64,000 bases of DNA from NCBI GenBank assembly GCA_002269645.1, contig NIVC01003351.1, positions 38,900 to 102,899 on the forward strand, given 5' to 3'. The DNA comes from Macrostomum lignano. Lineage: Eukaryota. The notes under the pieces were generated by a model. The model did not search any database, was not told the DNA's origin, and saw only the letters and a program-made list of their open reading frames with translations. Below are positions 50,292 through 54,472 of this stretch, piece by piece; the first letter of the stretch is position 1, and each line of letters starts with the position of its first letter. The position numbers and the translations under genes were made by a program.

Positions 50292-50338
50292 AGTAGAAGG
50301 CATGAGGGGGCTTCTGGGACAAAATTTTTCACGTCCTC

Positions 50339-50565
50339 CATAATCCACCTAAATCCATCCATATTATCCCTGACAGAATCAGAAAAAAAGGGGGGTCGCA
50401 CTCGCTCACAAAACCTCCTCCATAATCCCATTAAATCCATCCACATTATCCCTGACAGAATCAGAAAAAAAGAGGGGCCGCACTCGCTCACAAAACCTCC
50501 TCCATAATCCCATTAAATCCATCCATATTATCCCTGACAGAATCAGAGCATTATCCCTGACAGAA
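50339..50565. repeat. 82-bp subterminal tandem repeat (~2.6 copies) in the putative Polinton TIR
   Basis: CATAATCC anchor at 50339, 50421 and 50503. Confidence 0.9.
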
Positions 50566-50768
50566 TCAGTGCATAACAGGTGTCCACTAACACCTGTTAT
50601 GCTCACTGACACTGACATAATCCACTAACATCCACCCAGAAACAATCAGAAAAAAATCTGCATTCTTCTCCCCACATTCAATTCGCAACGTGCTACCACA
50701 TCCCTAAGACTTTAAATCATCAGCGCAGGGTCCTCACCCTTTGAAAAAAATCTAAATTCTCAATAAAA

Positions 50769-51005
50769 ATGTTTCCAGTTGTCTCTCCAGGTTCTTATTA
50801 CAAAACGCACGAGCCTAATTACAAGAGTAAGTACCAATGCAAGAAGGAATCCAGCGAATACATGAGAAAATATTGGCCCGACGTTGATATCAATGTCCCT
50901 AATATTAATCTAGCTCTCCAAAGACACTGGTTTGAAAAACACGGAGTAGTCATTAATAATTTTGACAGCTATTATAACTTTGCTGAAGTTATAAGGCAGT
51001 TGTAG
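50769..51005 (+). CDS. Orphan 78-aa ORF near the Polinton left end
   Basis: Non-repetitive ORF with the same TAAAAATG start context as the other viral genes. Confidence 0.45.
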   Translation: MFPVVSPGSYYKTHEPNYKSKYQCKKESSEYMRKYWPDVDINVPNINLALQRHWFEKHGVVINNFDSYYNFAEVIRQL

Positions 51006-51228
51006 TAGCCAACTACACTACAAGGTTGTACCCTGTAGAGTGCAGACGCAAGATCTAAAAAATACTGACAAAATCATGTGCAGCATAAAGCGGCTCGTAT
51101 TTGTAAGCGATGGCTTACTGATAGTAAAGCTATTTGAACATGGCGCGAATTCCTCACATGGTGGACTAGAAAATGTCGCCATGTGCAAGGCAAGGACTTG
51201 GTGCAAGGGCGTATAAATAGCAGTTCCA

Positions 51229-51349
51229 CTCAGCTGGCTAGAGGTGGAGCCGACCTCGCGTGGCTATGACTGACTGACGAGGGCAAAAAAGCACAAAACC
51301 GGTCTCAGTCTGCCCCGCATGGTTCGATTCCCACTGATAACATGATTTT
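51229..51349 (+). promoter_or_regulatory. Pol III type-2 internal promoter-like boxes and TTTT terminator flanking the hammerhead
   Basis: D-arm/A-box-like CTCAGCTGGCTAGAGG (51229-44), exact B box GGTTCGATTCC (51321-31), TTTT at 51346-49, and TATAAATA at 51212-19. Confidence 0.5.
51258..51318 (+). ncRNA. Type-I hammerhead ribozyme fold (variant, G12>A)
   Basis: Stem I GACTGA(51268-73)/TCAGTC(51305-10), core CTGACGA(51274-80), stem II GGGC-A6-GCAC, then AAAA where GAAA is expected, palindromic stem III ACCGGT and the GTC cleavage triplet (51302-04). Stem I extends as GCGTGGC/GCCCCGC. Confidence 0.7.
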
Positions 51350-51860
51350 CACGAACGTTCGTAAAAATCATGTGCAGCATAAAGCGGCTCTCAGTGGTTA
51401 CATGATTTTTACGAACTTTCGTAAAAATCATGTGCAGCATAAAGCGGCTCTCAGTGGTTACATGATTTTTACGAACTTTCGTAAAAATCATGTGCAGCAT
51501 AAAGCGGCTCTCAGTGGTTACATGATTTTTACGAACTTTCGTAAAAATCATGTGCAGCATAAAGCGGCTCTCAGTGGTTACATGATTTTTACGAACTTTC
51601 GTAAAAATCATGTGCAGCATAAAGCGGCTCTCAGTGGTTACATGATTTTTACGAACTTTCGTAAAAATCATGTGCAGCATAAAGCGGCTCTCAGTGGTTA
51701 CATGATTTTTACGAACTTTCGTAAAAATCATGTGCAGCATAAAGCGGCTCTCAGTGGTTACATGATTTTTACGAACTTTCGTAAAAATCATGTGCAGCAT
51801 AAAGCGGCTCTCAGTGGTTACATGATTTTTACGAACGTTCGTAAAAATCTTGTGCATAAC
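51340..51860. repeat. 60-bp palindromic tandem array, 8 essentially identical full units
   Basis: Unit = TTCGTAAAAATCATGT + 26-nt loop + ACATGATTTTTACGAA + CT. Confidence 0.98.
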
Positions 51861-52270: not shown

Positions 52271-53134
52271 TCACATTCTCTCAATGATTAACGTCAATAC
52301 AAACTCTTCACCGTTGAAATCAACACCCATCCCATCTTCAGTCTCAAACTGTAGCACAATCTCGTGAATCTCCTTATTACTCAATACAACTCTTTTCACT
52401 GGATTTGGTTTCTCTACCACCATCTGTCCTCCAGCAACAGAGTTGGAGATGTTGTACAAAATATTCGTTCGCTTTCCCTTAAATACCCAATCAAGACTGA
52501 GATTGCTTCTGATTAGAATATTCAAACCCTTTACAATGTCTGCAATATTGGGTGCTAAGAACAAACCGCTTACATTTTCCCGGACCATTCTAACAGTCCC
52601 CGATGCTTGAGTGGCGGTCTGCGCCGCGGATTCTGCCTTATAAACTTTCTTCTCGAATCCTAGTTCCCTATACCAAGTGTCATCTTTAAACTCAACCTCC
52701 GCATTTTTGTGAACTTGCATGACCACTCTCATTACAGTGAGATCATAGGTTAGTTTGACAGGGAACAGTTTCTTCTCTGGCTTACTCGCATCAGGTGTCT
52801 CAAAATGGCCTCTCTTAGTAAAGACATTTTCTAGAAAGTTATTGTAGGTATCCACACTTTGCGTGCTCACATGGAATACCACAGGGTCTTCTGCTGCACC
52901 TTTCCATTTGTAATAAAACTTATTATTTGCTGCCATCACATTGGGAACGTTTGACCAACCAGTGAAGTCGTTAAGATAGACATGGTAATTAGCACCTGGA
53001 TCAAGGCGAATCGCCTGCTCTAATTTTTCAACAAATATCCCGTTTGAGTCATTAATTCGCCCGGTTATTGTAATAGGAATGCTCTCCTTAGAGTGTGAAA
53101 CAATGTTGTTTAGTCTTTCGGCTATAGCTTCCAT
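52271..53134 (-). CDS. Minor capsid (penton-like, single jelly-roll, PX) protein
   Basis: Motifs WSNVPNV..NNKFYY, ELGF, ADIVKGLNILIRSN, ILYNI..G.MVVEKP and VDFNGEEFVLTLIIER match Polinton mCP; adjacent to the MCP. Confidence 0.85.
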   Translation of the reverse strand: MEAIAERLNNIVSHSKESIPITITGRINDSNGIFVEKLEQAIRLDPGANYHVYLNDFTGWSNVPNVMAANNKFYYKWKGAAEDPVVFHVSTQSVDTYNNFLENVFTKRGHFETPDASKPEKKLFPVKLTYDLTVMRVVMQVHKNAEVEFKDDTWYRELGFEKKVYKAESAAQTATQASGTVRMVRENVSGLFLAPNIADIVKGLNILIRSNLSLDWVFKGKRTNILYNISNSVAGGQMVVEKPNPVKRVVLSNKEIHEIVLQFETEDGMGVDFNGEEFVLTLIIERM

Positions 53135-53156
53135 TTTTTTCACCCACAAAAAATAT

Positions 53157-54442
53157 TTAAACTTTACTGGATGAATTGTTGATCATGTTAAGCTTCACCT
53201 TCCTCTCAAATGCATAGATAATGTACAGGTCCACGGGTGTTGCGGTAGTCCTTTCAATGTTAGTCACGATATTCACAGGGCTGTTATCAGTAGGCATTTG
53301 TCTGGCAGACACATCAGCGCCAAACATCGGATATAGAGTTCCATATTGAAGAGCAGTGATAGCAATTCCATTGTTCTCTTTCACAGCCAAGTCGACCAAC
53401 TCGCTGTAAAATTTGCTAATCTTGTTCTGACTGAAATCTCCATTTTGTGGCAGTGCAGGGTAAAGATTATCACTGATTTCATGCTGAATGGACCGCACGT
53501 CTCCATGCATGTAGCGTATGATGCTATTTGGGTTTCTCATATTAATAATGATATACCTTGGATTGCTGCATGATCCCTCTTTAATGCAGATATTTGTTCT
53601 AGTTTCGTTTCGCTCATCTCGACACATGTAGGCTGTGTATGCAACATCAATGTCCTTCTCTATTGCCTTAAGATAATCCGCTTTTAGTGCAGTCTTTGGC
53701 TCAATGACTTCCAAATACAGCTCGATTCCGGTTAGCTTCACCTCCATCCTTGTGTGGTCCGCCCCAGTCCACAACACTCTACTGCGATCATCTCTAGTCA
53801 TCCTAAATGTGTAGCTAAAGTTACTAGTCAGTCGATTAAATGTATTACAGAATCCACTCATGAATCTCAATGGTACAAATACATCAACAGACCGATACTG
53901 CGGGTTCTTAGCAGCATCATCTGCACCTTGCAATGCATAGTTGTATCTCTTCTTCCTATTTTTATAGCCACTGTCATTGATATCTCCTTCTTTTTCATCT
54001 GCAATAAAACCCGCACCACTTCCCAATTGAATAAAATCAGGATTCTCGTCAAACAATGAGCGTCATAGACAATTCCAAAGTTGGCGATTCGCTCCAACTC
54101 AGTGCTCCCATTCGATACACTAAACTCCTTGAACATGTACGCCCAAAAGTTACTGATCAGAGCCACATCCGCATCATGCTTGTCAACGTTAGCACGAGCC
54201 GCATCCGCACCACCTTTTGTCTTGAATTGAAATGTCATATGGAAGCCGCTCTTAAGACTGTGCACACTAACCAGAGACGAACATCCATTGTATGTAAATG
54301 TCAGTGTTTGACCTGGACCCAAATTAGTTTCATTCTGGTTCTCGTGACTCGGAACTCTAACTTGTGTCGCTTTGATTGTGCTATCATCACTCAAAATAGG
54401 CTTGTTAATTTTGTAGAAAACTGGTGTCAGTGGGTCGTTCAT
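53157..54442 (-). CDS. Major capsid protein (double jelly-roll, PY), ~428 aa, one frameshift near 54057
   Basis: N-part (DDSTI..NLGPG..LTFT..NFWAYMFKEF..NGSTELE..G) and C-part (FVPLRFMSGF, NPRYIII, YP, FYSEL, YPMFGADVS, DLYIIY) join by adding one T. Confidence 0.88.
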
Positions 54443-54472
54443 TTTTTAACTAAAAATAAAATAAAATAAGAA

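Follow-up and report, generated by a model that had tools for sequence, protein, structure and literature searches.

A hammerhead ribozyme motif carried in a Polinton of Macrostomum lignano lies in a solo LTR of a TRIM with a predicted LTR-retrozyme design

Introduction

What is a hammerhead ribozyme fold, framed by sequences that resemble RNA polymerase III (Pol III) promoter boxes, doing inside a Polinton? The question is raised by a stretch of 64,000 nucleotides from the genome of Macrostomum lignano, hereafter the window. Motifs resembling A and B boxes are familiar in a DNA virus from the adenovirus VA RNA, and the schistosome Sm-alpha repeat, a non-LTR element, reportedly brings together tRNA-derived sequence and a type-I hammerhead. 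The first-pass annotation of the window had proposed that the module might be a viral Pol III RNA of about 120 nt, self-cleaving or VA-like, or else a retrozyme or SINE that the Polinton carries along.

The answer bears on how retrozymes are classified. They are split into LTR elements of plants, with type III ribozymes, and non-LTR elements of animals, with type-I ribozymes and a link to Penelope elements, a division that is kept in the accessible part of a 2026 preprint (bioRxiv 10.64898/2026.07.22.740005). As far as the available text of three earlier papers goes, metazoan hammerhead repeats are described as having neither LTRs nor primer sites nor polypurine tracts (PMC4918200, PMC7229834, PMC7761336).

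Results

The motif has the form of a canonical type-I hammerhead

Re-examination of the sequence bore out the type-I topology and the coordinates first assigned to the motif. Stem I pairs 51268-73 with 51305-10 (6/6 pairs), the core begins at 51274, stem II carries an A6 loop and has one position without a pair, the palindromic stem III occupies 51298-303, and the predicted cleavage site lies directly after 51304. A relaxed type-I descriptor has this motif as its sole site in the 64-kb window and finds nothing in 5000 shuffles of the 138-nt segment originally pointed out; on the 13.7-kb Polinton stretch it is satisfied in 5 of 300 shuffles, and in none of 300 once stem I must reach at least 6 bp and the loop of stem III must measure 4 nt. 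In an Rfam search, which had been suggested as a check, the HH9 model matches over its full length in the window (24.6 bits, E 0.0077) and scores 32.7 and 32.2 bits in free copies described below, always under the gathering score of 52; the stem III of the motif is shorter than that of the model. Rfam matches to miRNAs in the window were set aside as a product of the palindromic array (Table 1).

Some details of the original description needed adjustment. The extension of stem I exists, with six pairs in place of the seven that had been counted, and the interruption described as a bulge is unpaired, as stated, in the form of a 3x1 internal loop. The fold had been likened to the minimal hammerheads of Penelope-like elements; with a 6-bp helix I, a 4-bp helix II and a short palindromic helix III, it is the canonical metazoan type I. 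Two defects noted earlier, a non-consensus base at core position 12 (51295) and the missing pair in stem II, were found again on re-reading. The topology is kept, and the window copy is, judging from these two defects, likely to be inactive.

Table 1. Coordinates of the LTR, its parts and the surrounding Polinton in the window
Feature	Coordinates	Strand	Remarks
Polinton left terminal inverted repeat	50292..51032	+	extent taken from sister copies
Solo LTR of the TRIM, family A	51102..51339	+	238 bp here, 230 bp in free copies; first and last bases identical to the 14 free LTRs
18-bp local duplication	51183..51200	+	in a subset of Polinton-borne LTRs, in no free LTR
TATA-like box	51212..51219	+	sequence motif only; first base differs in free copies
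tRNA D-arm-like segment, degenerate A box	51229..51243	+	free copy matches host tRNA-Ile D-arm at 14/15
Helix I extension and internal loop around the ribozyme	51258..51318	+	51258-64 with 51312-18, 6/7 pairs
Canonical metazoan type-I hammerhead	51268..51310	+	Rfam, descriptor and shuffle runs, core survey, folding
Exact Pol III B box within T-arm-like segment	51321..51331	+	sequence
LTR 3' end	51330..51339	+	without 10 bp that include the LTR's own T4 run; full in 13/14 free LTRs
Right-hand copy of 5-bp target site	51340..51344	+	left copy lost in window LTR
Polinton 60-bp palindromic tandem array, 8.6 copies	51340..51856	.	LTR insertion target; supplies TTTT 51346-49
Degraded Polinton coding region	52271..64000	.	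contig ends at 64000, right end beyond it

The hammerhead is part of an LTR element

A search of the host genome gave 42 candidates, 40 of which were scored. Of the 40 matches, 39 are copies that hardly differ from one another, and the remaining one is a partial match that belongs to a second family; a search with the upstream part returned 39 matches. The 39 LTRs of this family, family A, are divided between 14 free copies at 8 sites and 25 copies that are borne by Polintons at one site. The free LTRs measure 230 bp each and begin and end with the same bases at all 8 sites, five of which hold a solo LTR, while the other three hold arrays of 2, 3 and 4 LTRs. Six interiors of 160-162 bp are each flanked by LTRs, with n+1 LTRs for n interiors, and the two-LTR element at C3053 (about 230 + 160 + 230 bp) is non-coding and shorter than 1 kb. 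A 5-bp target duplication is perfect at seven of the eight free sites and holds in 4/5 bases at the eighth; a 5-bp match is easier to get at the four sites that lie in tandem repeats, and the duplication is perfect at all four that lie in unique DNA. Two bases into the interior there is a primer site of 10 nt complementary to the 3' end of host tRNA-Glu plus CCA, and at the interior end a polypurine tract (14 nt, 13 of them purines) abuts the next LTR. The LTR termini are TG..TA, not TG..CA, and the 390-nt unit contains neither AATAAA nor ATTAAA. The LTRs of a single insertion differ at 1-7 positions, and the element was recently inserted.

Thus, on the combined evidence of the LTR ends, the primer site, the polypurine tract and the 5-bp target duplications in its sequence, the element is a TRIM, and 51102-51339 of the window is one of its LTRs standing alone. 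The hammerhead is present in each LTR, with a canonical core in 11 of the 14 free copies and, counting free and Polinton-borne LTRs together, in 23 of 39, so that the loss of the core residue from every copy, which had been envisaged as fatal to the hammerhead, is not observed. A longer tRNA-Glu primer pattern, with which we looked for an autonomous partner LTR element, found none: it gave 12 matches, and the seven inspected are tRNA-derived copies or unrelated DNA. A CRISPR-like repeat-spacer reading was rejected, since only the host flanks vary, whereas the interiors are almost the same throughout.

The same arrays might instead be read as a Penelope-dependent non-LTR retrozyme, a 390-bp tandem repeat in which partial units merely mimic LTRs. 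A type-I hammerhead with a palindromic helix III and tandem units of about 390 bp are typical of such elements, according to the accessible text of two reports (PMC7229834; bioRxiv 10.64898/2026.07.22.740005). The ends fixed at all eight free sites, the excess of one LTR over the interiors and the 5-bp duplications speak against it, as do the primer site and polypurine tract placed exactly at the junctions, which metazoan retrozymes lack as described in the same text. This reading is already largely refuted, and we give it hardly any credence.

The ribozyme is nested between pieces of tRNA-like sequence

In the free element, the ribozyme is placed between the D-arm-like and the T-arm-like sequence. 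The D-arm-like segment recognized upstream in the first-pass annotation was found again, its A box being degenerate: the two halves (TRGCY and YGG) both occur but overlap, the 5' A-box bases differ, and family B, described below, is without a matching D-arm. In free LTRs, this segment doubles as the 5' arm of a helix whose other strand is the LTR's 3' end; the A-box region may be kept partly for pairing. The exact B box downstream was confirmed in the sequence; it is kept in most LTRs of families A and B, and the 21 bases that start with it agree with host tRNA-Leu or tRNA-Lys at 16-17 positions.

ARAGORN found no tRNA in the element, and whole-LTR alignments to four host tRNAs are weak, with family A at best at 5 of 500 shuffles. 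A single origin from tRNA-Leu was considered and not established: the search pattern favoured Leu by design, and among the seven host sequences compared tRNA-Lys and tRNA-Ile fit parts equally. The likeness to tRNA is genuine in pieces, with no single donor tRNA established.

Two copies of the motif are predicted to fold as a double hammerhead

When the 43-nt motif is co-folded with a second copy of itself, the double hammerhead equals the energy minimum, at -34.3 kcal/mol, whereas a monomer would adopt the hammerhead at -7.0 kcal/mol against -15.6 kcal/mol for a rival fold. For the window copy, the corresponding values are -20.3 kcal/mol as a double hammerhead and 0.0 kcal/mol as a monomer. 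The canonical metazoan type-I form is described, in the accessible text, as cleaving poorly as a monomer and working as a dimer (PMC4209133), and the ribozyme of the free element is predicted to work only as a dimer.

The 390-nt unit that runs from one cleavage site to the next is strongly folded, with z scores of -5.8 as a linear and -5.3 as a circular molecule (65% paired) and 0 of 100 shuffles as stable in each case. Helix I runs on into a long arm, in which the region of the "A box" pairs with the T-run and the LTR end. This long outer helix amounts to -22.2 kcal/mol in the free element and to -8.2 kcal/mol in the window copy; in the same sense, the 130-nt window segment is no more stable than its shuffles (z -0.76), compared with z -4.49 for its free equivalent.

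Sequencing runs offer a weak hint of a unit-length RNA. Three runs from three studies, whose RNA nature is a guess, each contain one 420-base contig that spans the free-type unit completely and deviates from it at 0-2 letters; in run X1, likewise guessed to be RNA, the 420-base contig joins back by 390. Such a 390-base contig loop would also be expected of DNA, of array read-through or of an ordinary LTR transcript with terminal redundancy. The three runs yielded no contig of the Polinton type and the unique 3' flank was not covered, which is no evidence either way given that contigs drop rare variants; a fourth run, of a kind not known, contains the Polinton-type variant with flanks. Tandem arrays, for their part, need no circle, since Helenus elements have them too. 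The T4 run right behind the B box could act as a Pol III stop before the primer site.

The Polinton carries the LTR as a passenger

The Polinton setting of the motif is upheld by hallmarks found across the window and sister copies taken together. The window element has capsid-like, A32-like, pPolB, protein X-like and protease-like matches; only protein X and endonuclease VII stand above the Pfam cut-offs, and the capsid, ATPase, pPolB and protease matches fall below them in the window and in the sister copies. The latter show an integrase (E 2e-10), terminal inverted repeats of 260-740 bp and a 6-bp target duplication, which is complete in 3 of 4 copies and holds in 5/6 bases in the other. The preceding part of the window (1-50291) contains host genes for a fatty-acid desaturase, a glomulin-like protein, Brix and CDC73, among which lie many short-period tandem repeats with strong GC skew.

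All 25 Polinton-borne LTRs share one insertion position in the 60-bp array. The left copy of the 5-bp target is kept in 13 of them, perfectly in C864 and with one base off in the other 12, and all 25 are short of 10 bp behind the B box, a stretch to which the T4 of the LTR itself belongs. The TTTT at 51346-49 was thus correctly located in the first-pass annotation and wrongly counted as part of the module: it lies outside the LTR and comes from the Polinton repeat. The core is canonical in 12 of these copies and shares the position-12 substitution in 11, while the other 2 have neither stem III nor a cleavage site left. Broken cores, 13 in number, are distributed over 11 distinct host flanks, so that the spread of the Polinton likely continued in the absence of an intact ribozyme. 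The 11 position-12 copies cluster together with weak support, and their substitution may be one inherited event; among the free LTRs 3 of 14 cores are broken, a comparison in which the copies are not independent. In three related Polintons (C3033, C87 and C957), the adjacent Polinton DNA is shared and another ORF stands where the array and LTR would be.

The simplest reading of these sequences, we infer, is one insertion into the Polinton terminal repeat followed by passive copying, and this passenger history of the LTR appears to us highly probable. The hammerhead module is not a Polinton gene. The proposal of a viral self-cleaving or VA-like RNA is not supported, in view of the LTR ends and target-site traces, the frequency of broken cores, the proposed terminator outside the element and the absence of the insert from the three related Polintons. 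Likeness to the adenovirus VA RNA goes as far as A/B-box-like motifs in a DNA-virus-like element; the motifs here, by contrast, are those of a solo LTR of foreign origin, which decays within the Polinton. The other early suggestion, that of a retrozyme or SINE as a passenger, was right in essence; its kind, however, is a solo LTR of an LTR-type element, not a SINE or a Penelope-type repeat.

The solo LTR might nevertheless have been domesticated by the Polinton, to serve as its promoter or as a gene for a short Pol III (VA-like) RNA, with or without cleavage. As many as 25 Polinton copies carry it, the match to the TATA box is better in them than in the free copies, the B box is kept in 23 of the 25, and the array provides a T-run 7 bases beyond the LTR end. 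Yet a core broken at so many flanks, the loss of the outer helix together with the unremarkable folding of the window segment, and an insert that related Polintons do without speak against it, and a solo LTR gives no second hammerhead in cis. We consider domestication very unlikely, and retain passive carriage.

Several observations concern the Polinton itself. The 60-bp tandem array, which lies just inside one Polinton end, contains an imperfect palindrome of about 34 bp, and we take it to resemble the hr origin/enhancer repeats of baculoviruses. In several copies, the last bases of the LTR have been overwritten by the array. The coding block is inverted relative to the array/LTR end in C2068, C754 and C317 as compared with the window, C958 and C4162, suggesting recombination between terminal repeats or between copies. 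Near the Polinton end there is cargo that varies from copy to copy, namely a PARP catalytic domain (L045:2204-2899, - strand, E 5e-26), a RING finger (L114:6128-6808, + strand, E 1e-7) and an ORF without a Pfam match (L046:1948-2673, - strand). A sister Polinton encodes, beside the integrase, a phospholipase A2-like domain (PF08398, L099:1994-2503, - strand, E 2e-13), presumably as expected of adintovirus-type elements.

An older family keeps the ribozyme

The same hammerhead occurs in a second family, family B, which consists of older solo LTRs of 183-246 bp (e.g., L121:1516-1735, L161:1341-1578 and L170:1455-1698). It was sampled from 281 candidates, of which 40 were scored and 30 retrieved, and from 21 of 43 exact pattern matches. 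The termini are TG..CA in the better-kept copies, and the 5-bp duplications have decayed. Core, helix I, loop II and palindrome are common to both families, and the B box and T-run are also retained in family B, while the remaining LTR has diverged. The outer helix differs from that of family A: in 7 of 8 copies, the outer arms of family B pair better with each other than in both cross-family combinations, and in one the cross-family pairing is as good. Most copies have no Watson-Crick pair closing stem II, which makes ribozyme activity in this family doubtful.

Searches for further carriers were negative within their scope. For a two-LTR element of family B, a pattern of LTR end plus primer gave 0 matches, and one of purine tract plus LTR start gave 53 matches, compared with 15 for the control, none of the 26 loci checked being an LTR. 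Among viral contigs, a loose pattern of hammerhead plus B box matched at least 120 stretches, and none of the 80 loci examined has the type-I fold, a sample that is no survey of Polintons; a family-specific pattern had 0 matches in metagenome contigs. By eye only, we noticed an apparent intact type III hammerhead in the consensus entries of two wasp LTRs, Helenus-2_SyJa-LTR and Helenus-2_SyUm-LTR, in the supplement of the Helenus paper (PMC10886601). This motif lies downstream of the tRNA-like part, its loops 1 and 2 are complementary, and the text of the paper, as far as it was available, makes no mention of it (PMC10886601). The wasp LTRs suggest that the combination of a hammerhead with a Helenus-type LTR recurs.

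The two families bear on whether the element is simply an ordinary Helenus-type TRIM with a normal terminally redundant transcript, its hammerhead having arrived with a fragment of a SINE or retrozyme from which the LTR was made and no longer having a part in transposition. All the structural hallmarks fit this, and insertion of a SINE into an LTR has been proposed as the origin of such elements in the accessible text of Kojima (PMC10886601). The unfavourable fold of the monomer and the imperfect stem II of family B point the same way. Against it stand the core, helix I, loop II and palindrome kept across two families whose LTRs have otherwise diverged, the canonical core of most free copies, and the strong folding of the unit from cleavage site to cleavage site. 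On balance we regard an ordinary TRIM as unlikely, and favour a ribozyme with a role in the free element.

Discussion

In this study, we have described a hammerhead module that is found in two settings, as a probably inactive passenger in a Polinton and as part of each LTR of a free TRIM, in which two copies of the hammerhead would cut out a unit-length RNA. Taken jointly, we hold these two statements to be probable. A cycle for the free element can be outlined by analogy with plant retrozymes and with metazoan circles. Transcription would start in the 5' LTR, either by Pol III through the tRNA-like boxes or by Pol II through the TATA-like box. The hammerheads of the two LTRs would then pair through the palindromic helix III, so that cleavage would require two LTRs, and a 390-nt RNA would be released and probably circularized by a host ligase; circles of metazoan retrozymes are ligated in vitro by RtcB, according to the available text (PMC7229834). 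Host tRNA-Glu would prime reverse transcription by the enzyme of an autonomous LTR element, the integrase of which would make the 5-bp duplications, and copying of a circle would yield solo, two-LTR and multimeric inserts. We rate the chances of such a retrozyme cycle as somewhat better than even.

The closest counterparts in design are the plant LTR retrozymes, as presented in the accessible text of Cervera et al. 2016 (PMC4918200). Both are non-coding LTR elements with a primer site, a polypurine tract and one hammerhead per LTR, both occur in solo, two-LTR and multimeric forms, and the unit RNA of both is highly paired with a long LTR arm. The plant ribozyme is of type III, whereas the present one is of type I and of the dimer kind, in an animal genome. 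The plant elements are primed by tRNA-Met rather than tRNA-Glu and make duplications of 4 bp rather than 5 bp, their LTRs of 300-400 bp and units of 600-1000 nt exceed the 230 bp and 390 nt found here, and tRNA-like boxes flank the ribozyme only in the present element.

In the case of Helenus/TRIMp3 (Kojima 2024, PMC10886601), the likeness, within the portion of the paper available, concerns the LTR: these TRIMs are shorter than 1 kb, and towards its 3' end their LTR contains a B box and sequence resembling a tRNA; a primer site and a polypurine tract are shared as well, as is the occurrence of solo LTRs and of tandem arrays. Unlike in Helenus, the hammerhead here takes the place of the anticodon and variable arms, ARAGORN finds no tRNA, and the duplication measures 5 bp, as in Ajax, against 4 bp in animal Helenus. 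A ribozyme is named in the main text of that paper in the title of one reference only (PMC10886601). With the metazoan non-LTR retrozymes (PMC7229834, PMC7761336, bioRxiv 10.64898/2026.07.22.740005, as far as accessible), the element shares a canonical type-I hammerhead, a unit within their range of 170-400 nt and the dependence on dimers reported for some of them. They differ in having no LTRs, primer site or polypurine tract and in making longer duplications, while the present element has all the LTR hallmarks. In the schistosome Sm-alpha repeat the tRNA is complete, according to the available text (PMC4918200); in the present element only remnants of a tRNA are left, and they enclose the ribozyme. 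All together, the sequence comparisons indicate that the element combines a Helenus-like LTR with the design of a plant LTR retrozyme.

The free retrotransposon is thus predicted to cut its own RNA, a design that is described for plants and that we did not find described for animals in the sources available. Within the open literature, neither an LTR retrozyme from an animal nor a Polinton with a hammerhead came to light; Repbase and most subscription papers lie outside this scope, and an earlier description is possible. To the Polinton the LTR is a passenger, whose main use is to mark lineages. For the retrozymes, the plant/animal split is broken by an LTR element that is found in an animal and has a type-I ribozyme, and retrozymes are tied to Helenus/TRIMp3. 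More tentatively, and at less than even odds in our judgement, animals may have an unrecognized class of LTR retrozymes, Pol III-type TRIMs with a hammerhead in or beside a tRNA remnant and with circular intermediates, which would then have two or more origins (with type I in this element and an apparent type III in the wasps) and whose LTRs Polintons could ferry between sites or hosts. From an experimental point of view, the element offers a recently inserted, testable system of 390 nt in which to ask whether an LTR element can do without its usual transcript ends by means of a cleaving ribozyme and a circular RNA, and whether dimerization through helix III acts as a gate that requires two LTRs.
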